64,000 nucleotides of DNA from Candidatus Tayloriibacteriota bacterium (GTDB taxonomy: Bacteria; Patescibacteriota; Minisyncoccia; Phycocordibacterales; PALSA-1337): the NCBI GenBank assembly GCA_003151615.1, contig PLXZ01000004.1, forward strand, positions 173,285 to 237,284, read 5' to 3'. The notes beneath the pieces are model-generated. The model ran no database searches, was not told the DNA's origin, and worked only from the letters and a program-made list of their open reading frames with translations. The position numbers were made by a program, and so were the translations under genes. Shown piece by piece: positions 9,223-56,591 of the stretch (its first letter is position 1; each line of letters begins with the position of its first letter).

Positions 9223-10050
9223 TCAAACTTCAGTTTTCTTGTATTTGTTGATGATGAGGACTTTTGACGTGCACGTCTCGGGGTTAATCAATTTGACCGC
9301 CAACGAAACACGGTTTTCTTCGTTGAGCGCAAACCAGTATGCCGTTTTGATTTCCTCGATGTCGCCTTGAAGCGGGACAAGGATCGGTTCACCGATAAAC
9401 GACGGCAGGGGATTGCCGTCTCCGGTGTAGGTTGTAACCATGCGGCCAAAACCTGCAGGAATGTCTTCATAGCTGTAAAACAGCCGTTCGCAACTCTCGT
9501 CAGCGTTTGATTTGCGAAGGACTGACATATGGAAACCGGGCTTTTTCCCTGCCTCGGCCGTAATAATTGCACTGATCCGAGGGGTGTAATTTGGTTTGTC
9601 GGGCTCGTATATATGGGTCGAAAGACCCTGGGCAAAACGCGAGAAGTTATCGTGCCCATTTATTTCGGCAATGATCTGGTCAGTCTGTTTGCCGTTGCTC
9701 ACCACATGCTGTCCGAAAATATAATCCATGGCATTGTAGATGATGAGACTCGTGTCTCCGGCTTTCGCGGGGTCTGCCGGTTCGGTGAAGATTCTTGGTC
9801 CCACGGCGCTGAAAATACGATTTCGGCTGTTCGCGCTTCTTCCCATTATCCAGTAAATCTGAACCAAATTTCCAGACTCGTCCCGGCCGATGACGATTCC
9901 GCGTCCCGGATACGGGTTTTCAAAGAGCCGCTTCAGATTTTTCGCGGCTTCCGTCGATTGATCAATTTCCATAATTTCCTCCATTTTCAACGATCGCGCC
10001 ACTGGTTGCTCGGTATATTGAGCGGGTTTATCGCGGATGCAGTGACACAT
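9223..10050 (-). CDS. purO: IMP cyclohydrolase, archaeal type (PurO)
   Basis: YPGRGIVIGRDESGNLVQIYWIMGRSANSRNR, HVVSNGKQTDQI and NYTPRISAIIT align with conserved blocks of Methanocaldococcus PurO (YLGRILAVGR..., VVSNGSHTD, NTPRIAAAI). True start may be an internal Met (9984 or 9972). Confidence 0.6.
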   Translation of the reverse strand: MCHCIRDKPAQYTEQPVARSLKMEEIMEIDQSTEAAKNLKRLFENPYPGRGIVIGRDESGNLVQIYWIMGRSANSRNRIFSAVGPRIFTEPADPAKAGDTSLIIYNAMDYIFGQHVVSNGKQTDQIIAEINGHDNFSRFAQGLSTHIYEPDKPNYTPRISAIITAEAGKKPGFHMSVLRKSNADESCERLFYSYEDIPAGFGRMVTTYTGDGNPLPSFIGEPILVPLQGDIEEIKTAYWFALNEENRVSLAVKLINPETCTSKVLIINKYKKTEV

Positions 10051-10068
10051 CCTTACTTGCTATATCAA

Positions 10069-10100
10069 AATCTATTCTTTTTCAGGGAAAAGTCAATAAG
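10069..10100 (-). promoter_or_regulatory. Sigma70-like promoter TTGACT-N17-TAGATT with TTCC-N8-GAA inverted repeat in the spacer (family D, copy 1)
   Basis: Reverse complement reads cttaTTGACTtttccctgaaaaagaaTAGATT, ~20 nt upstream of the purO ORF. The same element recurs at 12361 and 15420. Confidence 0.5.
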
Positions 10101-10167
10101 GGCCATTGACAACATTAGATAAATACTTTATCTTGCCAACAGATAAACAAAAATTTACGAGGTATTT

Positions 10168-10701
10168 ATGATCACTAAATTCGATGCAGCTCTCATTCAG
10201 TTTTTTGAAAAAATTGCACACGCGTTCCAAAGACTCACCGGAAAGAACAACTTCTGGCTGGGTTGGGCGATGTTTTGGATAGATGTCGTTTACGTCCTGG
10301 TCGGTCGTTATATCGGAAGGACGAAAGATAATAGTGAAATAATTTTTATGGAGATGTCCTTCTATGTTGTGGTTTACATTATCATTCAGATTTTGATCAC
10401 CAGGATACTTCAGAATTTGACATTTATATCAAATTCACGCGTCCGGTCGCGTAATCCGTTGGAGTGGCTCTTGATTGGCAAGTTGTTGAGAATGATTTGC
10501 TGGTTTTCCTTTCTGAAATCCTTGATGTCTAACTGCTTTGGATCAGGATCTTGGGTTAATACGGGGGATGATTTTTGCAATTTGGTCATGTGGTATTTCT
10601 TCTCGTGCACGCCGCTTCCACCCGGGGAGAACAAATTGTCCCGGTTGTTTGATTCGATGCGGTCTCTTTTCACCCGCAGGCATGCCGCCGTCGGCGCCTA
10701 A
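10168..10701 (+). CDS. Hypothetical membrane protein
   Basis: 177-aa ORF with several hydrophobic helices. No recognisable motif. Confidence 0.4.
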   Translation: MITKFDAALIQFFEKIAHAFQRLTGKNNFWLGWAMFWIDVVYVLVGRYIGRTKDNSEIIFMEMSFYVVVYIIIQILITRILQNLTFISNSRVRSRNPLEWLLIGKLLRMICWFSFLKSLMSNCFGSGSWVNTGDDFCNLVMWYFFSCTPLPPGENKLSRLFDSMRSLFTRRHAAVGA

Positions 10702-10719
10702 AATCAGTTCTTGAAATTC

Positions 10720-10750
10720 AAGGCACTACGTTACGTAGTGCCTTTTTATT
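10720..10750 (+). terminator. Rho-independent terminator
   Basis: aaggcactacgt/tacgtagtgcctt perfect palindrome followed by TTTTTATT, just after the 10168..10701 stop. Confidence 0.6.
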
Positions 10751-10820
10751 GACAACTTTCCATTAGGCGGTACTGTAAAGGAAGTTTTGAACCACACATC
10801 TTGAACCTCACAATTAAATT

Positions 10821-11750
10821 ATGAAACACATTCTGCGTTCACAACAGTTCGACAGGCCTGCCTTGGAAAAACTGTTTTCGGCGACCGATGAGCTGAGCGC
10901 CCTCTATGAAACTCCCGCTGGCAAGCGCGATATACGGAAACTCTGCGAAGGGAAGCTGTTGTTTGCCGTTTTCTACGAGCCTTCCACGCGAACCCGTTTT
11001 TCCTTTTGTTCGGCCGCGCAACATCTTGGCATGATGACTCTGCAAACCGAAAATGCCAAGGAATTTTCCTCGGCCATAAAAGGCGAGACTCTTGAAGACA
11101 GCATAAACGCCCTATGCCAGTATGATCCGGACATCATTGTCTTGCGTCATCATGAAACGGGAGGTGCCGATCGCGCCGCGGCCGTTGTTGACCGTTTCGA
11201 TCATAATGTTTCCATCATCAATGCCGGCGACGGCAAAGGCCAGCATCCGACCCAGGCGCTTCTTGATCTCTATACTATCAAGCGCGAGCTCGGCCGGATT
11301 GACGACATTACCGTGACCGTCACCGGCGATTTGGCCAACGGACGGACTGTCAAATCCCTCGTCTATCTGCTCGCAAAATTCAAAGGCGTCAAATTTGTCT
11401 TTCTCTCGCCGGAGAATTTAAAAATGGAGGAGGGAATTATCGGACACCTTCGCGAGCATGAAGTTCCGTTTCGGGAAGCGCGCAACCTCGAAGACGCCCT
11501 GACCGATACCGACGTCGCCTACTGGACCCGTATACAGACCGAACGCGGCAGTTCCAATACGACGCTTGATCTCACGCTCGGCGTGCCGCAGATGAAATTC
11601 ATGAAGGAAGGTTCAATTGTCCTTCACCCGCTTCCAAGGGTCAACGAAATCGCCAAGGAAGTTGACGGCGACAAACGTGCGGCCTATTTTCGGCAAGTCC
11701 GAAACGGCATGCTCATCCGCATGTCGCTTCTGCGGGAACTGTGCGGATAA
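10821..11750 (+). CDS. pyrB: Aspartate carbamoyltransferase catalytic subunit
   Basis: STRTR carbamoyl-phosphate motif, HPTQ, and HPLPRVNEI (ATCase-type HPLPR.DEI) motifs. 309 aa. Confidence 0.85.
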   Translation: MKHILRSQQFDRPALEKLFSATDELSALYETPAGKRDIRKLCEGKLLFAVFYEPSTRTRFSFCSAAQHLGMMTLQTENAKEFSSAIKGETLEDSINALCQYDPDIIVLRHHETGGADRAAAVVDRFDHNVSIINAGDGKGQHPTQALLDLYTIKRELGRIDDITVTVTGDLANGRTVKSLVYLLAKFKGVKFVFLSPENLKMEEGIIGHLREHEVPFREARNLEDALTDTDVAYWTRIQTERGSSNTTLDLTLGVPQMKFMKEGSIVLHPLPRVNEIAKEVDGDKRAAYFRQVRNGMLIRMSLLRELCG

Positions 11751-11765
11751 ATAACCAATCAATCG

Positions 11766-11803
11766 AATCCGGTCGGCATTGCAACCCGACCGGATTTTTT
11801 TAT
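11766..11803 (+). terminator. Rho-independent terminator after pyrB
   Basis: aatccggtcgg...ccgaccggatt stem followed by T7 run. Confidence 0.6.
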
Positions 11804-11827
11804 TAATTTTTACGGTGGTGGGGAATA

Positions 11828-11856
11828 TAAAAAGAGACGAACCGAAGTTCGTCTCG
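11828..11856 (-). terminator. Family-T terminator hairpin (gagacgaaccgaagttcgtctc + A-run on plus = T-run on minus), copy 1
   Basis: Perfect hairpin with loop aaccgaagtt. Near-identical copies at 13206, 14094, 15470, all downstream of minus-strand genes. Confidence 0.6.
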
Positions 11857-11885
11857 TGTAAAATTAAAATATCTTAAAAATGTAA

Positions 11886-12305
11886 TCAATGTGCCGCGGG
11901 TAGCGGTGCACCTTGTTCATCAACGAGGATATGATCCTCCGGAGTCCAGGCTGGTAAAGCCACAACAAGCACTTCGGCTGGAGCACCAACTCCCTCAGCC
12001 CAGTGAGGGGTGAAGGGAACAATTTGATTTATTCCATCTCCGGCCTTGTAGCGGTATGCGGCGCCGGATTTTCCCTGGTAAATGTCCAATTCGCCATTTA
12101 TGACGCAATATATTTCACGGGTGTGCATGTGCACATGAGCCTTCGATTTTCCGATCAATGCCACCGCCGTGCTCCAGCGTCCGTCGGGATCCTTTTCAAG
12201 TTCGCAAACGATTTCTTCGGGATGTTCACGGTTGGGCAGGTAGAAGATTTTTTTGCCGGTGTTGCGACGTTCAAATGCCGCAATCATTTCTTGGGGTATT
12301 TCCAT
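11886..12305 (-). CDS. Cupin domain protein
   Basis: HVHMHTREIYCVINGELDIYQG...AYRYKAGDGINQIVPFTPH matches the two conserved cupin motifs (G.H.H...E..y...G and G....p.g..H). Confidence 0.55.
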   Translation of the reverse strand: MEIPQEMIAAFERRNTGKKIFYLPNREHPEEIVCELEKDPDGRWSTAVALIGKSKAHVHMHTREIYCVINGELDIYQGKSGAAYRYKAGDGINQIVPFTPHWAEGVGAPAEVLVVALPAWTPEDHILVDEQGAPLPAAH

Positions 12306-12360
12306 ACGATGTTCTTTCTTTGTTGTGAACCGCTACGAGCAGTTCGATTTGCTGTCTTAG

Positions 12361-12391
12361 AATCTATTCCTTTTATGGGAAATGTCAATGA
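12361..12391 (-). promoter_or_regulatory. Family-D promoter copy 2 (TTGACA-N17-TAGATT with TTCC-N7-GGAA spacer repeat) upstream of cupin gene
   Basis: Reverse complement reads tcaTTGACAtttcccataaaaggaaTAGATT, ~50 nt upstream of the 12305 start codon. Confidence 0.5.
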
Positions 12392-12455
12392 GGGAAAATA
12401 AAAAACGCCGTACCCGAAGGTCGTGCGTTATTGTAATCAGACTAGCGGTATTTTT

Positions 12456-13013
12456 TTACTGGGCGTCCTTATAGGCGCATTCATTAGTGCAATAAACCGC
12501 GACTTGATTTGGGGGAATGGGTTTACCGCAACCTTCTCTTTCGCACTTGCGGCCCATGGGATGTGTATTTGGGGCGAACCATCCTCTGTTCTCGCACGCG
12601 GAGCACCCATGGCCGCCGCAATTGTCGCATTGGACAGAATCGGTGGGATAATTTTTATCCTTGGGAATATCCATAATGTTTCGTTCAACCACTGCTTGTT
12701 CGCTTGCCTGGCACTCTTCCACATGACGTTTGTAAGCGCGATGATGAATGTTTTTACCACACTTGGGACAGACATTGCAACATGGTGCAAAGTGCATCGT
12801 GTGACTTCCAGGTTCATGGCATGGACAATGACAGATGTCAGGGTCGGAACAACAATCATTGACAAGAGAGGGCGGTTTCATTTTTGGTTTTGCCCGGAAT
12901 TCTGCGTTGACTGCTTCCGAGGATTTTTTCCACGTCTTCGGGTCACCCAAGCCCTTAAAGGCTTCTTTGCGGGAGATGGGCCGACCACCCAGAGGAGTTT
13001 TTGGTGTGCTCAT
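12456..13013 (-). CDS. Cysteine-rich hypothetical protein (multiple CxxC/CxC pairs, probable Zn-binding)
   Basis: 185-aa ORF with >20 Cys in paired motifs (CHCPCH, CNVCPKCG, CDNCGGHGCSAC, CEREGCGK). Chosen over the overlapping ORFs 12423..13103(+) and 12437..12865(-) for protein-like composition. Ambiguous. Confidence 0.4.
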   Translation of the reverse strand: MSTPKTPLGGRPISRKEAFKGLGDPKTWKKSSEAVNAEFRAKPKMKPPSLVNDCCSDPDICHCPCHEPGSHTMHFAPCCNVCPKCGKNIHHRAYKRHVEECQASEQAVVERNIMDIPKDKNYPTDSVQCDNCGGHGCSACENRGWFAPNTHPMGRKCEREGCGKPIPPNQVAVYCTNECAYKDAQ

Positions 13014-13104
13014 GGTCTTTGTTCTGGTTTCGACTCACTACGAGTAAGTCTGTTCGCTGATTCGCATACTACAACTTATCTACTCAATAGTCAATTTTTA
13101 TAAA

Positions 13105-13197
13105 TTAATTTCGATCCCTGTTCGGGTATCCCAAAACCACCTTGATATACAATGCTGAAAAAGTGCTCCGCATGTTGAACGAAGTCAGAGCCTGTAT
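13105..13197. repeat. Composite repeat: family B (tRNA-3'-end-like TTCGATCCCTGTTCGGGTATC...) fused to family C (GCTCCGCATGTTGAACGAAGTCAGAGCCTG)
   Basis: Family B recurs at 18031 and 18942. Family C recurs at 14058 and 28421, the latter being the 3' end of the serine recombinase ORF. Confidence 0.6.
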
Positions 13198-13205
13198 TTA
13201 GATAA

Positions 13206-13235
13206 TAAAAAAGAGGCGAACCGAAGTTCGCCTCA
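13206..13235 (-). terminator. Family-T terminator hairpin copy 2 (gaggcgaaccgaagttcgcctc)
   Basis: Same loop as copy 1 with compensatory stem changes. Downstream of 13252..13626(-). Confidence 0.55.
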
Positions 13236-13251
13236 TTGAATGTTAATGTTG

Positions 13252-13626
13252 TCAGTGAGCAAGGTCAGGCCGACCGATGGGAAGAAACGCACTCCCACCG
13301 AGGATCCGGAGCCATAGGTCGGACTTAAGCGGTCCGATCCATCCCTCCGGAATCACACCGTCTGCGATGATGTCCGCCGATATTGCCTTGGCCAACTCGG
13401 CACGTGCTTCCTGGCGGCATCCGTCTTTGCCCGGCCCGGTATCAATTTCGATGCTGATGATCGAGTAGTTCACGTCGAGCGGTCCGACGTCGTGGACACG
13501 AAGCAGGACGTCTTCCATGTTCATCTTCAGATGAGTGGCGACTGCCTTGTGGGCGCTGTCGCGGATTTTTACCACCGCAGCATTGTCAGCACGACTGCGA
13601 TCTCGCCATATGGTTACGAGGGGCAT
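13252..13626 (-). CDS. Tautomerase-superfamily-like protein (Met-Pro1 N-terminus), paralog 1
   Basis: Starts MPLVTIW... (Pro1 after the initiator Met is the catalytic hallmark of 4-OT/MIF tautomerases). AGGAG RBS 6 nt upstream of this Met. The 150-aa listed ORF extends upstream without an RBS. 92% identical paralog at 15515..15889. Confidence 0.45.
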   Translation of the reverse strand: MPLVTIWRDRSRADNAAVVKIRDSAHKAVATHLKMNMEDVLLRVHDVGPLDVNYSIISIEIDTGPGKDGCRQEARAELAKAISADIIADGVIPEGWIGPLKSDLWLRILGGSAFLPIGRPDLAH

Positions 13627-13657
13627 TTTGGTCTCCTTTCTTTTGGTTGCTGGTTGA

Positions 13658-13897
13658 TTAACTTTTGGTTGACTGTGCTTTTTTGTAAGCTTCGTCATCC
13701 GCAACGGTTTCCTTGATGCCGGCAGTAAGGATGTTTAATCCCATAAGTGTCAGGATTAATCCAGACGTAGTGACTGCTTTGAATAAAACGACTATGTTTC
13801 CTGGGTTTGCTGCGTATTGGGCAATATAGGGTGCCGCAACTCCTAAGCAGTATGATCCGATGATCATCAGTGCTCCGACAACTGTTTTAATTTTCAT
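13658..13897 (-). CDS. Small two-TM membrane protein
   Basis: 79-aa ORF with two hydrophobic helices and a charged C-terminus. Confidence 0.4.
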   Translation of the reverse strand: MKIKTVVGALMIIGSYCLGVAAPYIAQYAANPGNIVVLFKAVTTSGLILTLMGLNILTAGIKETVADDEAYKKAQSTKS

Positions 13898-13937
13898 ATT
13901 TCGATTTATTTTATTGGTTGAGTTTGTTGTAATCTCT

Positions 13938-13989
13938 AGTTAGCCGTTTCCCATAAGACACTTAAATGTCCTCTGGGAAACGGCTAACA
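13938..13989. repeat. Perfect 15-bp inverted repeat hairpin (agttagccgtttccca ...20 nt... tgggaaacggctaac)
   Basis: Read directly. Lies upstream of the 13897 start codon, not in terminator position. Confidence 0.5.
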
Positions 13990-14002
13990 CCAATAGATAT
14001 GT

Positions 14003-14087
14003 CAAAAAACTACTACCATATAATAGTAGCATAATATATAGAATATGTCAAACGTTAGCTCCGTATGCTGAACGAAGTTAGAACCTG
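14003..14087. repeat. Composite repeat: family E (CAAAAAACTACTACC...ATATGTCAAAC) + family C copy 2
   Basis: Family E recurs at 16301..16372. Family C copy 2 (gctccgtatgctgaacgaagttagaacctg) is 25/30 identical to copy 1. Confidence 0.55.
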
Positions 14088-14093
14088 TTTGAA

Positions 14094-14121
14094 ATAAAAA
14101 AGACGAACCGAAGTTCGTCTC
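14094..14121 (-). terminator. Family-T terminator hairpin copy 3 (agacgaaccgaagttcgtct)
   Basis: Identical to copy 1. Downstream of 14141..14821(-). Confidence 0.55.
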
Positions 14122-14140
14122 GTGTAAAGTAATTTACGTT

Positions 14141-14821
14141 TTAACTCACTTCTGGCCATTGTTCGATAAGGGCTTCCAAAAGTTGTTCCATTTCCCACCG
14201 GCCTCCACAGTGAGGGGTAATGATCAATGAATCCAGCACGTTTTGCTCGTTTTTTCTGGATGCTAGCGTATCAAGTTTTCTCTGTTTGTCACAATCACAG
14301 GTGACCCCCACGATGAACGCACGGGGAACATCCTGTCGAAATTGCTGTAGGAATTTCAGGCAGGCATCAAATGCACTGAGGCCCATGTATGACACCAAGA
14401 GAATATTTGTATCTGTGTCAATGTTTCGCGCGATTTTATTTTCAACTTGTGCTTGGGCTTGAGCACCGATTGTTTCTTCGCGCTCAAGATACGTGGCCAT
14501 CATTTCCATGTCTGCGCGAGCCATCGCCGTGGCGCCGAATAAGAGATCAAACGGCGGTCGGTCGTCATGCCGTCCATGTGACAGGGTGATTTGCAGACCC
14601 TGTTTCCCGGGAGTAGCAAGCAGTCCATCTTCATAACTGCCGATGCCGTTGTAGCTCACAAAGATTGCACGCAGTGTTTTTTTATTGCGAATCACATTTG
14701 GCAAGATGTCGCTAATAAATTGGTCAGTGTTTTTTTGTTGGATTAAGGATGTGGTCGGCACGCTGTACCTCCGTAGTTGTTGGTTTTTGTTTAAGGGAGA
14801 AGTAAAATACTTCTCTGACAA
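14141..14821 (-). CDS. Hypothetical protein
   Basis: 226-aa ORF, protein-like composition, no motif recognised. Confidence 0.45.
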   Translation of the reverse strand: MSEKYFTSPLNKNQQLRRYSVPTTSLIQQKNTDQFISDILPNVIRNKKTLRAIFVSYNGIGSYEDGLLATPGKQGLQITLSHGRHDDRPPFDLLFGATAMARADMEMMATYLEREETIGAQAQAQVENKIARNIDTDTNILLVSYMGLSAFDACLKFLQQFRQDVPRAFIVGVTCDCDKQRKLDTLASRKNEQNVLDSLIITPHCGGRWEMEQLLEALIEQWPEVS

Positions 14822-14865
14822 TTTGAGTAAAGACTACAATATATGTTTTACTTTGTAAATAGGTG

Positions 14866-14968
14866 GCTCCCCGAACATGAGATTGTTATAACTATATTTT
14901 CCGACTTTGATTACATGAATCGGTTGTACGGACAGCTGTTGTTTATGAAGGCGATGGGGAAATAAAAA
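14866..14968. repeat. Family A repeat copy 1 (GCTCCCCGAACATGAGATTGTTATAAC...CAGCTGTTGTTTATGAAGGCGATGGGGAAATAAAAA)
   Basis: ~100-bp element, ~85% identical copies at 17208..17310 and 18089..18179, truncated copy at 18997..19020. Confidence 0.6.
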
Positions 14969-15013
14969 TCTCCCCGTAGCTTTCGCTCGTAGGAGAGTTG
15001 TGTTAAAAACAGC

Positions 15014-15361
15014 TTATTTTTTTACGGAAGTGAAAGGTTTCTTATCGGTTGAACCGTTAAGATAATCTATCCACGCGCATTGCCGAAAATAAGTTGAACG
15101 GGCATACATCGTAATGAGTTCCTCGCGCTCGACCGGCGTTTTGGCTTCGTCCAGTTTCTGTCTGGCTTCTGGCGAGAGCGATTCATTATTCATGTGATCT
15201 CGCTCTTCGTCCGTCAACATTGTTAGTCTGCGTTCAAAGTTGAGCCGGTGGAGCAGGTCATCAATACTTTCAATGCGTTCGTCTTTTTTCAATGTGTCAA
15301 GAAATGCGAGCAGCACTTCTTCAGTTTTTTGAAACTCTGCAGTTTTTGTCGGTTCACTCAT
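15014..15361 (-). CDS. Hypothetical acidic protein
   Basis: 115-aa ORF preceded by the family-D promoter. Confidence 0.45.
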   Translation of the reverse strand: MSEPTKTAEFQKTEEVLLAFLDTLKKDERIESIDDLLHRLNFERRLTMLTDEERDHMNNESLSPEARQKLDEAKTPVEREELITMYARSTYFRQCAWIDYLNGSTDKKPFTSVKK

Positions 15362-15419
15362 AAAGGTATCTTTCTTCGAAGTGCCGTTTATGGATTTTTG
15401 GCACGGTTTCCTATCCCAA

Positions 15420-15450
15420 AATCTATTCCTTTTACGGAAAATGTCAATGA
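15420..15450 (-). promoter_or_regulatory. Family-D promoter copy 3 (TTGACA-N17-TAGATT, TTCC-N7-GGAA spacer repeat)
   Basis: Reverse complement reads tcaTTGACAttttccgtaaaaggaaTAGATT, ~55 nt upstream of the 15361 start. Confidence 0.5.
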
Positions 15451-15469
15451 ATACTCATAAATGAGTATA

Positions 15470-15499
15470 AAAAAAGGGGCGAACCGAAGTTCGCCCCAT
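15470..15499 (-). terminator. Family-T terminator hairpin copy 4 (ggggcgaaccgaagttcgcccc)
   Basis: Same loop with compensatory stem. Downstream of 15515..15889(-). Confidence 0.55.
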
Positions 15500-15514
15500 T
15501 GAGTGTTGATATTG

Positions 15515-15889
15515 TCAGTGAGCAAGGTCAGGCCGACCGATGGGAAGAAACGCACTCCCACCGAGAATTCGGAGCCACAGGTCGGACTTAAGCGGTCCGA
15601 TCCATTCCTCCGGAATCACGCCATCGGCGACGATGTCCGCCGATATTGCTTTGGCCAACTCGGCGCGTGCTTCCTGGCGGCATCCGTCTTTGCCCGGGCT
15701 GGTGTCAATCTCGATGCTGATGATCGAGTAGTTAACATCTAGCGGGCCGACGTCGTGGACACGAAGCAGGACGTCGTCCATGTTCATTTTCAGGTGAGTG
15801 GCGACTGCCTTGTGGGCGCTGTCGCGGATTTTTACCACCGCAGCATCGTCAGCACGACTGCGATCTCGCCATATGGTTACGAGGGGCAT
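15515..15889 (-). CDS. Tautomerase-superfamily-like protein, paralog 2
   Basis: MPLVTIWRDRSRADDAAVV..., 124 aa, differs from paralog 1 at ~9 residues. Flanking DNA is also duplicated. Confidence 0.45.
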   Translation of the reverse strand: MPLVTIWRDRSRADDAAVVKIRDSAHKAVATHLKMNMDDVLLRVHDVGPLDVNYSIISIEIDTSPGKDGCRQEARAELAKAISADIVADGVIPEEWIGPLKSDLWLRILGGSAFLPIGRPDLAH

Positions 15890-15929
15890 TTTGGTCTCCT
15901 TTCTTTTGGGTTGTTGGTTGAAGCTTCGT

Positions 15930-16199
15930 CTAATTCAGCAGGGTAATTATACAATCGCCATTTATCATGACGATATTTCCAGTTTTGTCGTCCTGGAAAT
16001 AGTATCCGTTGCTTTGGCTTTCGTTTTCAATCTTGCCCGAGGTGGTCCACTGACCGATGAGTTTGCCTCCTGAATAGAGTTCAACTTTATGTTTTTTGCC
16101 CCAAGCTGAGAAGGCCGCTCGGTTTGCGTTTGAGCAACCGGATAGCATACCCAAACTTAACCCGGCAACCAGTATCATCAGACTAATTTTAAGTTTCAT
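15930..16199 (-). CDS. Lipoprotein
   Basis: Internal start MKLKISLMILVAGLSLGMLSGC gives a signal peptide with lipobox L-S-G-C. Confidence 0.45.
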   Translation of the reverse strand: MKLKISLMILVAGLSLGMLSGCSNANRAAFSAWGKKHKVELYSGGKLIGQWTTSGKIENESQSNGYYFQDDKTGNIVMINGDCIITLLN

Positions 16200-16300
16200 T
16201 TTTTTCCTATTTTTGTAGTTGGTGTGCAAACCAAACTTGGCTGCATCTTTCAAGGCTCGAATAAGCCCTCAAAGACGCAGCCAATTTAATAGGGGAATTT

Positions 16301-16372
16301 CAAAAAACTATTACGTAACTATGATAGCATAAGATATAGTATATGTCAAACACGAGCTTCCCGAACGGGAAT
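16301..16372. repeat. Family E repeat copy 2 followed by GCTTCCCGAACGGG (degenerate GCTCC-core site)
   Basis: caaaaaactattacgtaactatgatagcataagatatagtatatgtcaaac parallels 14003-14057. Confidence 0.5.
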
Positions 16373-16449
16373 AAAAAAGGCCGCGCACTTAAGATGGCAC
16401 GGCCTTGGATATTTTGATTGAGGTTGTTTGACCCGCCTTGAGAAGATTG

Positions 16450-17112
16450 TTAATGGCAACCACCACTGTAGTGATAGACAGCTGCCTTTTCCCCCAACTG
16501 TTCTTGAATGTTACGATCCTCACAGATTGCAATGTCAACAATTTTGCCTTCGTAATGCGCTTTACGATACTCGTTGGCAGGCACGACTTGATATTTATTC
16601 CAAACAATCATTACAAGGTCTGCATTGCCGGTGTATTTATCTTTTTTGCCGAGCCATAGGACCTGATTGAATCCGAGTTTGTTAACCCCCTTTTTTGAAA
16701 GACTATTCTTTTTTGTCATAGTCTTTAGAATCTCTGCGGCAGGTATTTCCTCAGGAAAAAACAAATCCGTCGGGACTGCATTGTCTGGGAGTCGATCCAA
16801 GGTTTTTCCGACAGAAAATTTTTTTTCGCTCGGAACAATCGCATATAGCACAGGAGAGAATGGACTGTCACCATTGTAATCCTCAGGTCGTGACAATGCT
16901 AAGGTTGAATGACCTGCCGCGGGGCCAGTATGATGAATGTTTATCCCGTCGATCACCAGACCGCCGGAAGGTAGTATGAGTCGTTTCACTGGTCCAGATT
17001 GATATGATTTCCGCCAAGATTCAGGGCTTTTAGTTTCGTTTTTCATAAATTCTTTCGAAGTTCTTTGTTTCAAACCCCTAATTAGGTGGTTCAGATTTAC
17101 TGATGTGAACAC
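16450..17112 (-). CDS. Hypothetical protein
   Basis: 220-aa ORF. No motif recognised. Confidence 0.4.
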   Translation of the reverse strand: MFTSVNLNHLIRGLKQRTSKEFMKNETKSPESWRKSYQSGPVKRLILPSGGLVIDGINIHHTGPAAGHSTLALSRPEDYNGDSPFSPVLYAIVPSEKKFSVGKTLDRLPDNAVPTDLFFPEEIPAAEILKTMTKKNSLSKKGVNKLGFNQVLWLGKKDKYTGNADLVMIVWNKYQVVPANEYRKAHYEGKIVDIAICEDRNIQEQLGEKAAVYHYSGGCH

Positions 17113-17207
17113 TACAATATAAATATTAAAGAGTCAATAATTCGTAATGGTTCGAATCCCATTCTGGGTACGAAAAAAGACCCATATAAATGGTTCTTTT
17201 TTCACAT

Positions 17208-17310
17208 GCTCCCCGAACATGAGACTATTATAACCATATTTTCAGACTTAGATTACATGAGTCGGTTGTATAGTCAGCTGTTGTTTATGAAAGCGATGGG
17301 GAAATAAAAA
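17208..17310. repeat. Family A repeat copy 2
   Basis: gctccccgaacatgagactattataaccatattttcagacttagattacatgagtcgg... Preceded at 17140-17168 by a tRNA-3'-end-like fragment ggttcgaatcccattctgggta. Confidence 0.55.
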
Positions 17311-17358
17311 ACCGCCCAACAAAGTGCCGTTGGGTCGGCTTTTGAATATGGACGGGGT

Positions 17359-17598
17359 TTAACTACGCTCGATGACTTTAGCGGTAACGACTGATGTAGG
17401 AGGTCTTTCAAAAACTGAATCAGGCACTTCAAACTCTACCGTCACGACCGCTCGATCTTTGGGTTGAGACAGGTAGCCTTCACCGTAATGTTCTTGATTA
17501 TGTTCTTCAGATTGTTTCAACAACTCATCAATCCATTGTGAAGCCGCAATAGCCTTGTTGTAACCCTTTGAAACTTCGATATGCGCTGTAACTTTCAT
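17359..17598 (-). CDS. Hypothetical small protein
   Basis: 79-aa ORF. Confidence 0.4.
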   Translation of the reverse strand: MKVTAHIEVSKGYNKAIAASQWIDELLKQSEEHNQEHYGEGYLSQPKDRAVVTVEFEVPDSVFERPPTSVVTAKVIERS

Positions 17599-17638
17599 TG
17601 ATAGTATCCTTTCTTTTTGTTTCTAGTTTAAATACTGG

Positions 17639-17971
17639 TTAGCAACAACCGCCACCGCCTGAGCAATGGCCTCCAGTTGCCCGAATGTATCGGCGAAGCG
17701 AGTCAGTGTCATAATCCTCACCGCCGATTGCTCCTGCATATACTTGTATTTTAGCATCAGGGGCTTGCAGATGTTGGACGCTGTGTTTGTAGGGTGTCTG
17801 CTTTATAAGCGACTTCCAGTTATCCAAGAGTTTTTCTTTATCATCAGACCATGTGACAAAGTTTATTTCACCCGTCCCGCATTTACAGGAGAGAGAATGT
17901 TGATATCCACGTAGGTAGGCGTTCACCTCTGGACTCCTTCCACAACGGCAGGGAATTGGTGTCATATTCAT
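17639..17971 (-). CDS. Hypothetical Cys-rich protein ending CSGGGGCC
   Basis: 110-aa ORF with CRCG...CKCG and a C-terminal Cys/Gly cluster. Confidence 0.4.
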   Translation of the reverse strand: MNMTPIPCRCGRSPEVNAYLRGYQHSLSCKCGTGEINFVTWSDDKEKLLDNWKSLIKQTPYKHSVQHLQAPDAKIQVYAGAIGGEDYDTDSLRRYIRATGGHCSGGGGCC

Positions 17972-18030
17972 AATTTTGTTTTCAAGTTGTCTGATTCAAA
18001 GATTACCTCTAACTGATTAAAAGTCAATCA

Positions 18031-18179
18031 ATTTCGATCCCTATTCGGGTATCGCAAAACCACGTTGATATACAAGGCTGAAAAAAGTGCTCCCCGAACA
18101 TGAGATTGTTATAACCATATTCTCGGATGTGGATTACATGAATCGACTGTATGGTCAGCTGTTGTTTATGAAGGCGATG
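18031..18179. repeat. Composite repeat: family B copy 2 + family A copy 3
   Basis: atttcgatccctattcgggtatcgcaaaaccacgttgatatacaaggctgaaaaaagtGCTCCccgaacatgagattgttataacc... Confidence 0.55.
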
Positions 18180-18346
18180 TCAGTATGACTTGCAAGGACT
18201 TGCTTTTATACCATATATGTGATATAATTAAGCCAGTAATCCTTAATCGTATGGTTAAGTCGTTTCGGTACCCTTTGGGTATGTGAAATAAGGGGGTATG
18301 TGTTTTCCTCCACTAAGACACAAGTTCATTGGAAAGAAATTAACGT

Positions 18347-18880
18347 ATGTTAAAAGACTACATCATCATCAACGGCCCTCCGAAGTTCGAACTCATGCTC
18401 GCTTTATTCCATACTGCGAATATTGTGTTCAAAACTGAATGCGGTCAGGTCATCACTGTAATGGTAACCCAGGTCAAAAAACTTAACGACGATGGCCACG
18501 ACGCTTGGAATATCAGGGGCTTCATCATTTTGGATGACGGAGACTATCGGAAAGATAGTCACGAATGCAGAGCCATTTTCTCCAGCAAAAACCGTAAAGG
18601 TAAGCTGACAGACCTCGGTCTGAAAAACATGAAGTTCGAGCCTGAATACCTTGAACGTCTGTCTGATGACCAACTTCGGAAGAGGGTCGCTTCTGACCAG
18701 AAAATTGCAGAACATTTCAAGGCTATACTCGATCAATACATGTGCGGACTCAATCCCCGTGATCGGTTGATTGCGGAAGTTATTGCCGCGCAGGAGTTGG
18801 CCTTGGTGACGATGGATATTCAGTCCAAACACAGCAAATATACTAATGACCGTTCACGTAACACTGCGATTGCAGCGTAA
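18347..18880 (+). CDS. Hypothetical protein
   Basis: 177-aa ORF, the only plus-strand gene in the cassette region. Confidence 0.45.
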   Translation: MLKDYIIINGPPKFELMLALFHTANIVFKTECGQVITVMVTQVKKLNDDGHDAWNIRGFIILDDGDYRKDSHECRAIFSSKNRKGKLTDLGLKNMKFEPEYLERLSDDQLRKRVASDQKIAEHFKAILDQYMCGLNPRDRLIAEVIAAQELALVTMDIQSKHSKYTNDRSRNTAIAA

Positions 18881-18896
18881 GTGCGACAGACATTTG

Positions 18897-18937
18897 TAAT
18901 TAAAACGGCGACCAGAAATGGTTGCCGTTTTTTTATT
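18897..18937 (+). terminator. Rho-independent terminator
   Basis: aaaacggcgaccagaaatggttgccgttttttt hairpin + T7. Confidence 0.6.
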
Positions 18938-18941
18938 ACTT

Positions 18942-19020
18942 GAGTTCGATCCCTGCTCGGGTGCTCGAAAACTGTGTTGATACACAAGGTTGAAAAAAGT
19001 GTTCGCCGAACATGAGAGGA
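18942..19020. repeat. Family B copy 3 + truncated family A (gttcgccgaacatgagagg)
   Basis: gagttcgatccctgctcgggtgctcgaaaactgtgttgatacacaaggttgaaaaaagtgttcgccgaacatgag. Confidence 0.5.
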
Positions 19021-19042
19021 AGATACTCTGACGCATTAGCCT

Positions 19043-23863: not shown

Positions 23864-24472
23864 CTACGTCGGCAAGGTCTTGTTTTTTGAAAGCCAATTT
23901 TCCATACGATTTTCAAATGTCATAAGCTCCCACTGGGCTAAACTCGCGTTCTCATTTTTCGCTTTCTTCTTGCAAATATCCATGGCCTTTATGTACTCTT
24001 TTTCTGTAAATTCACCTTTTGTCCATTTTGGGCCTTCCCAAGCAATTTTATTTAGAATAATTGAATCTATCACGCAGTGCAGAGGTTCATCTTTTTTGAA
24101 ATTAAACACCCATAGGTATTTAAGATAGAGATTGAGAAGTTTTTGTACTCTGCCGAAAGTGATTTTGTTGTTATTCAAAATGTCGATATATACCGATTTG
24201 TTTATTTTTTGTTGAAAGTCATTGAGGAGTTCAATATACTCTTCGTCCGTATTAGGAATTTTTTCTGAAAATTTTTCAAGCTGTTCCGATAAATAATCTC
24301 TAAATTTCATCCGCTTATTTGGGTCGGCGTTCAGTTTGTAAGTGGAGTAGCCTCTTATTAACGCCGCTTGGAAAACCAAAGAAGAGATTTCTTTTTTGGC
24401 GAATTCTATTTTTTTGAATTCTATTGATTGCATACAAAAAGCCCACCACAGGTAGAGGCCTAAGCCTCTCAT
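23864..24472 (-). CDS. Hypothetical protein
   Basis: 202-aa ORF, Lys-rich. Confidence 0.4.
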   Translation of the reverse strand: MRGLGLYLWWAFCMQSIEFKKIEFAKKEISSLVFQAALIRGYSTYKLNADPNKRMKFRDYLSEQLEKFSEKIPNTDEEYIELLNDFQQKINKSVYIDILNNNKITFGRVQKLLNLYLKYLWVFNFKKDEPLHCVIDSIILNKIAWEGPKWTKGEFTEKEYIKAMDICKKKAKNENASLAQWELMTFENRMENWLSKNKTLPT

Positions 24473-24752
24473 ATCAGTTTCCCAATATGGCGAGTTAAGC
24501 GACCCTATGATGGGTTTTTTATGCTTAACTCGACTTTCTTCACCATGCCATTGGATTACTCAAATGGTTTAGGCTACTTCTAACATATTCAGTTGTGGCC
24601 TAATCATACAATAAACGCCAATATCTGCAATGGTGATTAAATCAGAGCAAGCGCAGGACAAAGTTCTTTTTGTGAGGTAGTATATTTCTATGCGGACACA
24701 GGTTTACAGCTGTTAGAGCCGAGTTTTAAGCGAAAGAGCCACCTATAAAGAT

Positions 24753-26837: not shown

Positions 26838-28457
26838 ATGAAAAAGAAGCAAGTAAATGAAAAACCATTAGAAGACATAAAATACGCCGCCAGTTATATC
26901 AGAGTGTCGACCCAAGACCAGCTCAACGGGCTTTCAATTGAGGTTCAAGAAAAACTGTGCCAACGAAGAGCCGAAGAAGCAGGGTACAAAGTATCTGAAG
27001 TCCTTGACGACGGAGGTATTAGCGGACACAACGACAATCGCCCAGGATTGCACCGCTTGAAAGAATTGATTACGACAAAAAAGATAACGGCTATAGTCGC
27101 TCTATCGTCCGAACGCCTTTTCCGCAACACCCGCTCGCATCTCGACTTTATGGAGTGCGTCTTTACTTACGGTGTTCATCTCCTTTACGTCAATGGGGCA
27201 ACACCTGAAAACAACGCAAGTTCAAGGATGCAGGACACAGTTCTTGCAAGTATGAATCAGTTTTATAGAGATCAAATATCTGACAAAGTGAAAGGTGTCC
27301 TCTATGAAAAGGCCAAAATGGGCTATTACCCCTCTCGACCTCCAGCAGGATATATGAATGTTCCAAACCCAGACAAGAATGCAGAACGCATGGCGCAAAA
27401 GCTCGTAGTGCCAGACCCAAACACAGCTCCATTCATCAAAGAAATGTTTACGCTCTACGCCACAGGAAATTTCAACGTCTACGACCTTTGCGACATTATG
27501 TACGAAAAGGGCTTGCGAAGCAGAAAGGATGGCAAAATATCGCCAAGTAGACTTCACGATATGCTGAGAAGCCGTTTTTACATCGGTGAGCTTGTATGGG
27601 GGCCAATCAGCAACATAGAGGGGAAACACGAGCCTATCATTGATGAAGCGGCCTTTAATCAAGTGCAAATGATTTTAACAGCACGCAATCACCACGCCTG
27701 TCGGCGGCGGAAATACCAATGGCTTTTAAACGGCTATCTCTACTGCTACAAGCACGACAACCGTTATACGGCCGAATGGCACACAATCGGAAATAGACGC
27801 ATTGCATATTACCATTGCGCCAACAAAAGCGGTTGCGGCAAGTATTCCGAACAAGTAGACCTAGAAGCTAAAGTTGCCGAAAAATTCAAGGACTTGGAGT
27901 TTAGTCCTGCGTTTATTAAAGAGGTGATCGCCGAAGCAAAGGCGACATTCAACGAACAGCGAAAGGGCTACGACAAAAAGAAACAAGGCCTCATCAATCA
28001 GCGTACCGCTTTCGACCGACGGCGCAAGGTTATGGAAGACAAACTTTTCGACGGCGTAATCGGCGATGACGACTTCAAAAAGAACCGAGCCGAAGTTATG
28101 GCTGAAATACAACGGATTGAGGTGAAGCTATCGGACTTGGAAAAAAGCAGGGAGGTCAGAGTTGATGAAGCGGAGCAGATACTTCGTTTTACGAAGAATA
28201 TTTACGACGCATATCAAAAGGCATCGCCAGATCTCAAGCGGCACTATTTAGGCTTCTTTTGGTCACGCTTTGAGGTAAGTGATAAGGTTATAATAACGTC
28301 TACTCCCTCGCTTCTTTTCGCTGAACTTTTGAAGCTAAAACACGCTATTTTTAGAAGGTCAGAAACGCAAAAACACAAAGGACTGAATAGATCTAACAAA
28401 GTTATATTAGGAGGTCTACGGCTCCGCATGTTGAACGAAGTCAGAACCTGCATTTAG
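26838..28457 (+). CDS. Large serine recombinase (resolvase N-domain + recombinase domain + Zn-ribbon + coiled coil)
   Basis: AASYIRVSTQDQ (catalytic Ser), DGGISGHNDNRPGL, recombinase-domain block, C...C.C...CGK zinc ribbon. 539 aa. The last 30 nt equal repeat family C. Confidence 0.8.
   Translation: MKKKQVNEKPLEDIKYAASYIRVSTQDQLNGLSIEVQEKLCQRRAEEAGYKVSEVLDDGGISGHNDNRPGLHRLKELITTKKITAIVALSSERLFRNTRSHLDFMECVFTYGVHLLYVNGATPENNASSRMQDTVLASMNQFYRDQISDKVKGVLYEKAKMGYYPSRPPAGYMNVPNPDKNAERMAQKLVVPDPNTAPFIKEMFTLYATGNFNVYDLCDIMYEKGLRSRKDGKISPSRLHDMLRSRFYIGELVWGPISNIEGKHEPIIDEAAFNQVQMILTARNHHACRRRKYQWLLNGYLYCYKHDNRYTAEWHTIGNRRIAYYHCANKSGCGKYSEQVDLEAKVAEKFKDLEFSPAFIKEVIAEAKATFNEQRKGYDKKKQGLINQRTAFDRRRKVMEDKLFDGVIGDDDFKKNRAEVMAEIQRIEVKLSDLEKSREVRVDEAEQILRFTKNIYDAYQKASPDLKRHYLGFFWSRFEVSDKVIITSTPSLLFAELLKLKHAIFRRSETQKHKGLNRSNKVILGGLRLRMLNEVRTCI
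28421..28450. repeat. Family C repeat copy 3, coincident with the 3' end of the serine recombinase ORF
   Basis: gctccgcatgttgaacgaagtcagaacctg, 28/30 identical to 13166-13195. Confidence 0.6.
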
Positions 28458-28534: not shown

Positions 28535-29620
28535 ATGAGCAGTAATGCACTACTATCTTTATCAAAGACAAATAAAGTTTCGGAGCAAAATAAATTTGTG
28601 GCAGCTCAACCGATGCCAACAATTGATATTGAAAACAGGCGATATATCGGTAGCAAAGCAAAACTTTTAGATTGGATTTTTGATCACATAAAAAAAGAAT
28701 GCAAAGGAAATAGCTTCGCTGATATTTTTGCCGGTACAGGCGTTGTTTCCGCTAGGGCAGCGAGATCATTCAACAAGATTATCTTGAACGATATTTTGCA
28801 TTCGAACTTTGCTTCATATCAGGGATTTTTTGCGCAGGAAAAATATGATAGGGAAAAAATATTTAATTTTGTAGCACATTACAATTCTCTAGATGCTAAG
28901 GATATCAAGCATACATTTTTTTCAAAAGCATTTGGCGGAAAGTATTTCAATGTACCTGCGGCAAAACTTATAGGATACATTCGCGAAGACTTAAATAAGA
29001 GAAAATCAGAATTAAATAACAAAGAGTATCATATTTTGTTAACATCTTTGCTATATTCAGCTGACAAAATTGCGAATACCGTAGGACATTACGAGGCATA
29101 TTTTAAGAAAAGTATTTCAGATCGTAAATTTATTTTTAGACTAATCGAACCTTTGATCAAAGCGGGTAGAGTTTCTATTCACAGAGAGGACGCCAATGAA
29201 TTGGCAAAGAGCTTGAAAGCTGACATTGTTTACATTGATCCGCCTTATAATTCAAGACAGTATAGTCGCTTCTACCATGTCCTAGAAACACTCGCTCTTT
29301 GGGACAACCCCAAGCTTTTTGGTGTTGCACTTAAGAGGCCAGAGGAGAATATGAGCGAATATTGCAGAAACAATGCGGTCAATGCATTCGCTGATCTAAT
29401 TGGTAAACTAAATGCTAAGTATATTGTTGTTTCCTACAATAATACCTATAACTCAAAAAGCTCATCGTCGAGAAATAAGATCGAGCTTGAAGATATAAAG
29501 AGCATTTTGACCAGTAAGGGTAAGACAAAGATTTTCAAAAAAAGTCACCAATTCTTTAACGCAGGTAAGACAGACTTCAACGATCATCAGGAATGGCTTT
29601 TTATCACGGAAGTATTATGA
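28535..29620 (+). CDS. DNA N6-adenine methyltransferase, D12/Dam class (first of two)
   Basis: RYIGSKAKLLDWI (D12 class motif I) and VYIDPPYNSRQY (DPPY catalytic motif). Confidence 0.75.
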   Translation: MSSNALLSLSKTNKVSEQNKFVAAQPMPTIDIENRRYIGSKAKLLDWIFDHIKKECKGNSFADIFAGTGVVSARAARSFNKIILNDILHSNFASYQGFFAQEKYDREKIFNFVAHYNSLDAKDIKHTFFSKAFGGKYFNVPAAKLIGYIREDLNKRKSELNNKEYHILLTSLLYSADKIANTVGHYEAYFKKSISDRKFIFRLIEPLIKAGRVSIHREDANELAKSLKADIVYIDPPYNSRQYSRFYHVLETLALWDNPKLFGVALKRPEENMSEYCRNNAVNAFADLIGKLNAKYIVVSYNNTYNSKSSSSRNKIELEDIKSILTSKGKTKIFKKSHQFFNAGKTDFNDHQEWLFITEVL

Positions 29621-38308: not shown

Positions 38309-38615
38309 ATACCCACTTTATTCCTCGTTAAGAAGAAAGTAAAGAAAGAAAGCGAGTAACAATACACTCTTTTGAGTGTATGTGGACTGATTTCAAATAG
38401 ATGGTATCATGTTGGTTACAATTGAATATTAAAGTAGCCTAAACCCTCGAGTAATCGGTGGCATGGTGAAAAGTCCCGTCGGAGCCAAAGAACCCATCAT
38501 ATGGGGTCGCTCTGACGGGCCGTATCGGGAAACTGATATGAGCAACTTCGGTTGCTACCCATGTGGTGGGCTTTTTGCTACCACTCATGGAATATTTACG
38601 CCCTAAAATATTCGC

Positions 38616-42668: not shown

Positions 42669-42997
42669 AATCATATAATCCGAATGATTCAGGAAAAAAG
42701 TTTCTGGTTGATGAATGTCAAAAAATAAGTATAACAACCTATATTCGACAAGCTAAAGCAAAGCTCAAGAATGCACTACTCATGAGCACACTTGAGATGG
42801 ATAGCAAGGCCATAGAATTGACCCCCTCAAAGACCTCATTCCATGGCGAAAGATATTGGTTCAAATGCCCTAAATGCAGTAAGCGCGCCGGCACATTATT
42901 CGTACATCCACTGAATCATGAAATTGGATGTAGAAAATGCCTTAACCTTGAGTACAGAAGCAGAAGATATAAAGGCATGATTGAGGAGTCATTTTAA
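42665..42997 (+). CDS. Hypothetical zinc-ribbon protein
   Basis: CPKCSKR...CRKC, 110 aa. Start overlaps the upstream stop (ATGA). Confidence 0.4.
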   Translation: MKSYNPNDSGKKFLVDECQKISITTYIRQAKAKLKNALLMSTLEMDSKAIELTPSKTSFHGERYWFKCPKCSKRAGTLFVHPLNHEIGCRKCLNLEYRSRRYKGMIEESF

Positions 42998-43056
42998 GCC
43001 CGTAGACTTATCTTGTATTAGCGGTATTGTATGTGTTAAGACAACTAACAAAAATA

Positions 43057-44759: not shown

Positions 44760-45091
44760 GGATCGAACCTACGACCAATCGCTTACATCGCTCCTCTTGT
44801 TGCCAAAAGGGATGGACTATATCATTTCCATACATTGTCAATCTGATTTGACGAATGATTAGGGACGAGGGGCTTCGCGGGCTGTTTTGAAATTTTTGTA
44901 TTTCATAACGCCAGCTACTCTTTAAAAAGATAGTCTCTACACCTTCCCATTTTTTGAATGGGCTCGGCTCGGGATTGCCCGCAGTTTTGTGCTGCGGGTT
45001 TCCCCGATTTCTCCTCGTTATTCGACCAGGCTTTTACCTGGAAGCTGCAAGTTGTTTACAGGCGACTGCTCTACCGCTGAGCTATCCCGGA
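44748..45091 (-). tRNA. tRNA gene (probably tRNA-Asn GUU) interrupted by a group I intron in the anticodon loop
   Basis: 5' exon TCCGGGATAGCTCAGCGGTAGAGCAGTCGCCTGT (acceptor, D-arm GCTC/GAGC, anticodon stem GTCGC). 3' exon TAAGCGATTGGTCGTAGGTTCGATCCCTACTCCCGGAG (anticodon stem GCGAT, T-arm GTAGG-TTCGATC-CCTAC, 7-bp acceptor complement). Exons are separated by ~270 nt. Confidence 0.6.
44786..45057 (-). ncRNA. Group I self-splicing intron within the tRNA
   Basis: P-like ACTGCGGGCAA, Q-like AACCCGCAGC, R-like GTAGAGACTAT and S-like GATATAGTCC elements in order. P1 possible between exon CTGT and GCAG (terminal U.G). Omega-G precedes the 3' exon. Confidence 0.55.
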
Positions 45092-56444: not shown

Positions 56445-56591
56445 GTTGGATAATATAGCATATACGCTATATATGTAAAATTTCAAAATTGTGGATAACT
56501 GGCGGTGGAATCTCTCAATAGGCGGCATTTTTTATTCTTTCTTTAGAACATTTTGAATGTTTCTCTATCGCCGCTTTGCTATGGTTGGCGG

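Follow-up and report, generated by a model that had tools for sequence, protein, structure and literature searches.

Probable reuse of a purO promoter module ahead of unrelated accessory genes in uncultured Patescibacteria

Similar upstream regions that precede non-homologous genes have been described as putative mobile promoters (PMPs), a form of promoter reuse in which regulatory RNA motifs are sometimes carried along with the promoter, and for which a cut-off of at least 80% identity over at least 50 nt has been published (Matus-Garcia et al., 2012; PMC3575422). Here we analyze a stretch of 64,000 nt, hereafter the window, from the Candidatus Tayloriibacteriota assembly GCA_003151615.1 (contig PLXZ01000004.1, positions 173,285 to 237,284), in which a block of about 47 nt with the features of a promoter, P1, stands upstream of purO, of a probable cupin gene and of a small ORFan gene, ORF115. 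We consider it fairly probable that P1 is the promoter module of purO, reused before unrelated accessory genes, and that the likeness of its copies reflects promoter reuse rather than a shared repressor site; as such, the locus is a further example of a known phenomenon. To our knowledge, almost nothing is known about how transcription is initiated, or how new genes are taken up and expressed, in the Patescibacteria (Candidate Phyla Radiation), which are uncultured.

P1 is like a PMP in that similar upstream sequence precedes non-homologous genes in one genome with no known mobile element attached, and in that a leader has travelled with the promoter, as did the purO leader (leader A) at the sister-strain locus L002 described below. 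However, the P1 block is both shorter (about 47 nt) and less identical (73–88%) than the published cut-off, which it narrowly misses; around P1, the window and L024, a second contig of the L002 locus, are 100% identical across 40 nt and 73% across 140 nt, also short of that cut-off. It further differs in that its copies sit in a cassette array with several other conserved intergenic modules, and in that they show concerted evolution across three lineages, a pattern unmentioned in the commentary on PMPs (PMC3575422).

The three copies lie on the minus strand at 10053–10101 (copy 1, purO), 12345–12393 (copy 2, cupin gene) and 15404–15451 (copy 3, ORF115), where an earlier inspection of the bare sequence (the sequence-only reading) had placed them. 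Their −35 and −10 hexamers are TTGACT (10096–10091) and TAGATT (10074–10069) in copy 1, TTGACA (12388–12383) and TAGATT (12366–12361) in copy 2, and TTGACA (15447–15442) and TAGATT (15425–15420) in copy 3, with predicted starts at about 10061–10063, 12353–12355, and 15412–15414, respectively, and the corresponding 28-mers read TTGACTTTTCCCTGAAAAAGAATAGATT (10096–10069), TTGACATTTCCCATAAAAGGAATAGATT (12388–12361) and TTGACATTTTCCGTAAAAGGAATAGATT (15447–15420). The hexamers, described earlier as conserved, are so for TAGATT in all three copies and for TTGACA in copies 2 and 3 but not at purO, and the spacer, given as 17 nt, is 16 nt in every window copy (17 nt in the related L004 lineage). Each copy faces its open reading frame (ORF) from 55–96 nt upstream of the minus-strand ATG; the distance from −10 to ATG is 55 nt for copy 2 and 58 nt for copy 3, roughly the 50 nt noted before, but 84–96 nt for purO. 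With 9–10 of 12 hexamer positions matching the sigma-70 consensus (TTGACA/TATAAT), among them the second (A) and sixth (T) of the −10, a 16-nt spacer and the correct orientation toward the ORFs, the earlier promoter call appears sound, and P1 may be described as a discrete, predicted sigma-70-type promoter module from about −41 to +10. The similarity, which a repeat finder reported as family D5 (about 47 nt aligned, 74–83% identity within the window), begins 6 nt before the −35, at CCCT(C/T)A, and extends as far as GAyAGsAA, close to the predicted start.

One might suppose that the three sites have no common origin and match a strong promoter consensus independently, with spacers alike by chance or base composition, and the hexamer pair by itself is indeed not significant, since a shuffled window should hold about 1.5 matches to TTGAC-N17-TAGATT if one mismatch is tolerated. 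However, the degenerate 28-mer pattern matched three sites in the window and none in 100 dinucleotide-preserving shuffles. An nhmmer profile built from nine P1 copies, and run on the window, its 10-kb left flank and the related loci L004 and L007, gave 35–42 bits for the window copies and 31–44 bits for all known copies, compared with 8 bits for the next best site anywhere scanned, a gap of 27 bits between the P1 family and the background. Homologous copies, moreover, exist in other genomes. On these three grounds the chance explanation is refuted, its remaining probability being negligible. Extra copies were found in related lineages, and none besides the three exceeded 31 bits in the 74 kb of this genome formed by the window and its left flank.

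The genes behind the copies are unrelated: PurO, the cupin-like protein and ORF115 have no mutual protein similarity, yet the 47-nt block is common to all three. The first (9223–9984, minus strand) is purO, as named before, and encodes an archaeal-type IMP cyclohydrolase (PF07826, E = 1.2e-45) whose closest homologues are 59–62% identical (L004 62%, L007 59%); its start is ATG 9984 or, more probably, ATG 9972, which has GGAGG 5 nt ahead of it. The second, ORF139 (11886–12305, minus strand, 139 aa), probably encodes a cupin-fold protein, in line with the earlier label, given weak matches to Cupin_3 and to cupins in the PDB and a cluster-mate named cupin. ORF115 (15014–15361, minus strand, 115 aa), placed behind copy 3, is an ORFan cassette gene.

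Evidence on the origin of P1 comes from the purO loci of the closest relatives, namely L004 (ELA755, the metagenome-assembled genome (MAG) GCA_964503215), L007 (GROS21-1 scaffold_62) and L020. The −35 of the purO orthologues is TTGACA/T in all three, and the −10 is TAGATT in L004 and L007 and TAGTTT in L020, with the spacers tccctctccaaaagtac (L004), ttttcaccaaaagtac (L007) and ccctttatacacgtgg (L020). The purO genes of L004 and L007 keep TTGAC[AT]-N16/17-TAGATTTTG together with leader A, and the window, L004 and L007 share a pyrimidine-rich stretch followed by AAAAG-nAn-TAGATTTTG. At purO, P1 is thus ancestral within a clade of uncultured Patescibacteria; and since another PurO relative (P0006, 57% identity) has neither this promoter type nor leader A, the element is restricted to that clade.

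Leader A, the 5′ untranslated region (UTR) of purO, is kept in four lineages (window 9985–10062, minus strand; L004 1766–1839; L007 9908–10000; L020 95–169) and occurs also at L002 (2736–2800). It forms a hairpin, GGATGTGTCACTGCATCC (10052–10035), with the consensus GGAT(G/A)n-GTCAC-nATCC and one compensatory change from G-C to A-T, followed by a second small hairpin, CGCTC..GAGC. A downstream (A)GTGAC, CAGTGGC in the window, is complementary to the loop of the first hairpin (GTCACTG in the window), so that a pseudoknot is possible. The sequences are compatible with this predicted structure (94% of cells paired); covariation support is weak because the sequence is almost invariant. Leader A may be regarded as a candidate cis-regulatory RNA of a purine gene, and Rfam searches at permissive thresholds returned nothing credible, either for this leader or across the cassette array.

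A loose pattern search of the same loci revealed a second P1 copy in L004 (5724–5752), before a Cys-rich/MshEN gene, and a second one in L007 (8613–8640), before an unrelated 241-aa ORF (ORF241). These extra copies carry the spacer variant of their own lineage: in L007 both copies are the same, and in L004 they differ from each other at 2 positions. Within a genome, spacers show an identity of 0.75–1.00, and between genomes one of 0.53–0.76; for the orthologous purO promoters the value is only 0.56–0.59. Paralogous copies of P1 are therefore more alike than orthologous ones, indicating concerted evolution. P1 is at the same time rare, with three copies in 74 kb of this genome, no profile match in 34 kb of core genome around typA of two related lineages, and two matches only to the strict pattern in the whole ELA755 MAG, and is therefore not a general promoter of these bacteria. 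The promoter of typA, a gene 15 kb to the left of purO, is likewise conserved among three lineages; orthologous promoter conservation is thus normal here, and the special feature of P1 is its paralogous reuse.

The typA promoter region itself (TTGACG...TATGCTTTACTAT, followed by a GGCCTCGGCC hairpin) was found conserved at L023 4659–4858 and, in L027 and L028, at 9829–10000, and hairpins close to the 5′ end appear to be general in the predicted transcripts of this clade. The TypA protein encoded near purO is 81–86% identical to proteins named Patescibacteria, Parcubacteria or Candidatus Taylorbacteria, and 96–99% identical in many strains; with PurO homologues no closer than 59–62%, this marks the source organism as an uncultured member of the Patescibacteria.

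Farther afield, the window-type 28-mer had no match among GTDB genomes. A looser scan of the same collection returned the ELA755 MAG twice, a Krumholzibacteriota MAG and an MFD02979 MAG, and four more hits in unrelated taxa that are chance-like. Scans of viral contigs for P1 gave none, save one chance match inside a coding region of a giant-virus MAG. The Krumholzibacteriota and MFD02979 MAGs share the orthologous, promoter-like site TTGACAAACTCCCCCAAAAGCAGTAGATTTTG (L010 5583–5614 and L012 475–506), which scores 19.5 bits with the P1 profile and in L012 lies upstream of a 551-aa ORF read by eye as a putative phosphoenolpyruvate carboxykinase; this site is probably convergent or due to chance.

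Copying and relocation of the module are seen most directly in sister strains. A scan of JGI metagenomes yielded two contigs, L002 and L003, and a 35-kb ENA contig, L024, contains the L002 locus again. In L002/L024 the promoter is identical to window copy 3 at 40 of 40 positions and is followed by a purO-type leader, i.e., the hairpin GGATGTGTCACTGCATCC (18/18 identical), CCGCTC...GAGC, TAGTGAC and GTTGAAATGGAGGAAATTATGGAAA; the leader hairpin is joined to GGAGGAAATTATGGAAA, and an unrelated Cys-rich ORF follows. Similarity to purO ends 4 nt past the ATG, and the gene encodes an unrelated Cys-rich protein of 166/170 aa, homologous (40% over 96 aa) to the protein behind the second L004 copy. 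Since promoter, purO-type leader, ribosome binding site and ATG here precede a Cys-rich gene, these parts behave as a portable block.

The cupin gene has an orthologue on a 934-nt contig of a sister sample, L018, which was found via a cluster-mate; protein identity is 87% and DNA identity 84%. P1, a leader hairpin and a terminator of the family that ends the window gene (family T, discussed below) are all retained there, but the neighbors differ from those in the window, with a methyltransferase gene preceding the orthologue and a different junction module following it. Similarly, L024 and the window have only intergenic modules in common, namely P1, a D7-type promoter, four copies of the junction repeat D2 and the repeat D3, at 84–100% identity, and the genes between these modules are unrelated.

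Leaders, too, re-assort, as a second hairpin type shows. Leader B, in the 5′ UTR of the cupin gene (GAACTGC-TCGTA-GCGGTTC, 12327–12345, minus strand), is one of three occurrences of a hairpin whose 7-bp stem carries an invariant TCGTA loop, the others being at 13032–13050 (minus strand) and at L007 8657–8675 (plus strand). It stands behind P1 at the cupin gene and at L007 ORF241, whereas at window ORF185 it follows another type of promoter; the stem sequences all differ with pairing kept, and the three genes are unrelated. In the L018 cupin orthologue the loop of the leader hairpin is ACGCA in place of TCGTA. A further likeness, between the ORF115 leader and that of the L004 Cys-rich gene (leader C), was too weak to claim.

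Taken together, we propose that the native purO promoter, comprising the −35 TTGAC(A/T), a 16-nt spacer that is pyrimidine-rich and then reads AAAAG, the −10 TAGATT and conserved sequence around the start site (a total of about 47 nt), was copied before unrelated accessory genes in cassette-like arrays. The copies with their limits and distribution, the chimeric arrangements and the relocation are observed, and the mechanism of copying we infer. The likeness of the copies, the spacer included, would stem from common descent of the whole block, and the likeness within a genome would be upheld by selection for promoter function, gene conversion or a combination of the two. Newly acquired ORFan genes would in this way receive the transcription signals of a core gene, sometimes with leader and ribosome binding site as well, and would be expressed like purO, under whatever acts on the purO promoter.

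Several points weigh against this proposal. The promoter activity of P1 and its start sites, about 7 nt after the −10, are themselves predictions. Further, dispersed copies may exist in this genome, the scanned 74 kb being about 13% of the source contig (563 kb). P1 stands before a family of Cys-rich genes in two lineages, as would also be expected of a conserved regulon. Finally, the P1 spacer is much better conserved than synonymous sites, so that something constrains or homogenizes it, possibly a DNA-binding factor.

The sequence-only reading had taken the last of these possibilities in a specific form, proposing that a TTCC-N7-GGAA inverted repeat in the spacer is a repressor operator through which the genes are co-regulated. 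The repeat as described exists only in copy 2; it is TTCC-N6-GGAA in copy 3, and at purO one arm is degenerate (TTCC-N7-AGAA). The N7 spacing recurs in L018 and the N6 spacing in L002, and no TTCC...GGAA is present in the purO promoters of L004, L007, and L020. Nor are the arms longer than chance would provide, as a perfect 4-bp repeat with a loop of 3–9 nt is found in 7.9% of random 16-mers of the window and in 10–14% of shuffles of the three spacers, i.e., a chance frequency of 8–14%. With arms of 4 bp, spacing and sequence inconstant, and a dyad unconserved in orthologous promoters, the operator claim is not supported; under the favored explanation, the similarity of the copies does not derive from a TTCC/GGAA operator. 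Operators inside the spacer are known from MerR-type promoters, and repressor dyads may overlap the −35 or −10, and P1 is like them in having a short inverted repeat between its two hexamers. However, MerR-type promoters have spacers of 19–20 bp and longer dyads, whereas the P1 spacer is 16–17 bp, which excludes a MerR-type operator, and the P1 arms are short, variably spaced and absent from the orthologues.

A broader form of the idea is that the shared spacer is a site for some trans-acting regulator (a repressor or activator, or a specialized sigma or RNA polymerase contact), so that purO and the accessory genes form a small regulon, with the lineage-specific spacer variants reflecting co-evolution of site and factor. 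The sequence of sigma-70 spacers is normally free to vary. Between the window and L018 cupin genes, however, third codon positions are 66% identical, compared with 28 of 29 positions in the P1 core and 15 of 16 in the spacer; by our own arithmetic, at 34% divergence per neutral site, the probability of one difference or fewer in 16 positions is about 0.01. All lineages, moreover, share the order of pyrimidine tract, AAAAG, nAn and TAGATTTTG, the TTCC and GGAA arms are kept within the window lineage as the center varies, and P1 has been retained before the Cys-rich genes of two lineages. Besides the short, inconstant arms, their AGAA variant at purO and their absence from three orthologous promoters, this idea has against it that the similarity extends over the whole 47-nt block, larger than any plausible operator, that no conserved regulator gene was found near the P1 copies in the loci of the three lineages that were read, and that known copies are clustered within 1–5 kb, not dispersed. 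We thus consider a dedicated regulator possible but rather unlikely, and favor reuse of the purO promoter. The spacer conservation could reflect contacts of RNA polymerase with the spacer that set promoter strength, homogenization against other copies, or a bound factor. In the family-T terminator of L018, likewise, the stem is preserved by compensation, GAGACG/CGTCTC having become GGGACG/CGTCCC, and the two observations together suggest that the modules are under selection.

Copies 2 and 3 of P1 belong to an array of small ORFan cassettes on the minus strand (11800–19040), in which each cassette has its own promoter (P1, P2, or P3) and terminator, with junction modules D2, D3, and D6 between them. 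The sequence-only reading had also offered, as an alternative to the operator, that the promoter is part of a mobile unit together with the family-T terminator. Its first half agrees with the reuse and relocation seen in the L018 cupin gene and the L002 fusion; T, however, is not an obligate partner. The family-T intrinsic terminator (repeat family D4) after the cupin gene (GAGACGAACTTCGGTTCGTCTC followed by a T run, 11834–11855, minus strand) is the only one of the four in the window that belongs to a P1-driven gene, and the other three (13213–13234, 14100–14121, and 15476–15497) end ORF124 copy 1, ORF226 and ORF124 copy 2, whose promoters are P2 (family D7, TTGACA-17-TAyyAT) or P3-type (TTTACA/TTGACT-17-TAGTnT; P3 of the array was defined as TTGACT-17-TAGTAT). 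Conversely, purO and ORF115 have terminators other than family T, and in L002 P1 is placed after a non-T terminator. The promoter and the T terminator are therefore separate, independently re-assorting modules.

It is consequently improbable that P1 and T delimit a single fixed mobile unit with a gene between them, comparable to a phage moron or a transposable cassette, even though the cupin gene has P1 upstream and T downstream in both the window and L018 with differing neighbors, and each array cassette has its own promoter and terminator. In addition to the unpaired terminators and promoters, searches of the cassette proteins with Pfam, PHROGs, and PADLOC gave essentially nothing, with no PHROGs matches of note; BLAST against plasmid and phage DNA gave no match; and no transposase or integrase adjoins the array among the ORFs scanned. 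Phage morons are similar as autonomous one-gene units running from promoter to intrinsic terminator, but the array has no prophage context and no counterpart in phage and viral collections, and the lack of phage protein families and of phage or viral DNA matches rules out a moron reading.

Sedentary chromosomal integrons offer another comparison, being one-directional arrays of small ORFan genes split by conserved repeats, in which, within a lineage, the repeats resemble each other more closely than the genes do and gene content varies between strains. The array differs from them in that each gene has its own promoter and terminator and in that D2 is without an attC-like hairpin. D2 is a 92-nt junction repeat, CCCCATCGCCTTCATAAACAAC...GTTATAACAATCTCATGTTCGGGGAGC, located at 14866–14975, 17208–17317, and 18089–18198 (minus strand) in the window and at 2629, 3128, 4295, and 6208 (plus strand) in L024; its orientation is always that of the cassettes, and it is 84–95% identical between genomes with unrelated cassette genes. 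No stable hairpin and no Rfam match were found for D2, which was also absent from the viral contigs scanned. Folded as single-stranded DNA, either strand gave z-scores from −1.1 to +1.35, and with a folding z of about 0 D2 was rejected as attC. No tyrosine integrase (Phage_integrase) was found among about 40 ORFs scanned, the only recombinases found there being two serine recombinases 8–24 kb away, and the integron reading was set aside on the folding of D2 and the lack of a tyrosine integrase among those ORFs.

The D3 repeats (13110–13182, 18033–18105, and 18945–19017, plus strand, and about 17150–17190) resemble, in plus-strand reading, a tRNA 3′ end (TTCGATCCCTnnTCGGGT, GGTTCGAATCCCATTCTGGGTACG) and stand directly beside the −35 TTGACT of the third promoter type, P3. 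They may, from this resemblance, be remnants of att sites; no tRNA gene was found in the window. The second promoter family (TTGACA-17-TAyyAT) is present at 13999–14060 and 16297–16358 (minus strand), each time followed by a different leader hairpin with a perfect stem of 24–25 bp (13939–13988 and 16234–16287), a small membrane protein or lipoprotein ORF, and the duplicated 124-aa gene ending in a T terminator; the two copies of this gene, ORF124 (13252–13629 and 15515–15889), are 96% identical.

A more far-reaching, and to us doubtful, reading is that P1 is part of an undescribed cassette-exchange system of Patescibacteria, in which the modules (P1, P2, P3, the leader hairpins, the T terminator, the 92-nt D2 and the tRNA-3′-like D3) would act as portable expression signals and at the same time as sites of homology or recombination. 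ORFan genes would then be swapped between strains by way of the modules, without an integron integrase, and the uniformity of modules within a genome would be a by-product of such recombination. If the modules do drive exchange, they would give very small genomes a new means of turning over accessory genes; if they do not, the locus is an ordinary but clean case of promoter reuse. Under the favored explanation, reuse of the purO promoter, the comparison provides phylogenetically supported promoter, leader and terminator signals for Patescibacteria, a natural example of a core-gene promoter, leader and ribosome binding site grafted onto unrelated ORFan genes, and evidence of intergenic modules that stay conserved from strain to strain even as the intervening genes are replaced.

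Elsewhere in the window, two copies of LOOT RNA (RF03000, 82–84 bits) in inverted orientation, at 24454–24575 (minus strand) and 38436–38556 (plus strand), bracket a low-GC segment with genes for a large serine recombinase (26838–28457), a D12 adenine methyltransferase (28535–29620) and an AlwI-type endonuclease (30527–32128). A group I intron (RF00028, 52 bits) is located at 44793–45067 (minus strand), just after the second serine recombinase gene (42981–44759). An EPSP synthase gene (54834–56528, minus strand) encodes an N-terminal Cro/C1-type helix-turn-helix domain, an unusual fusion.

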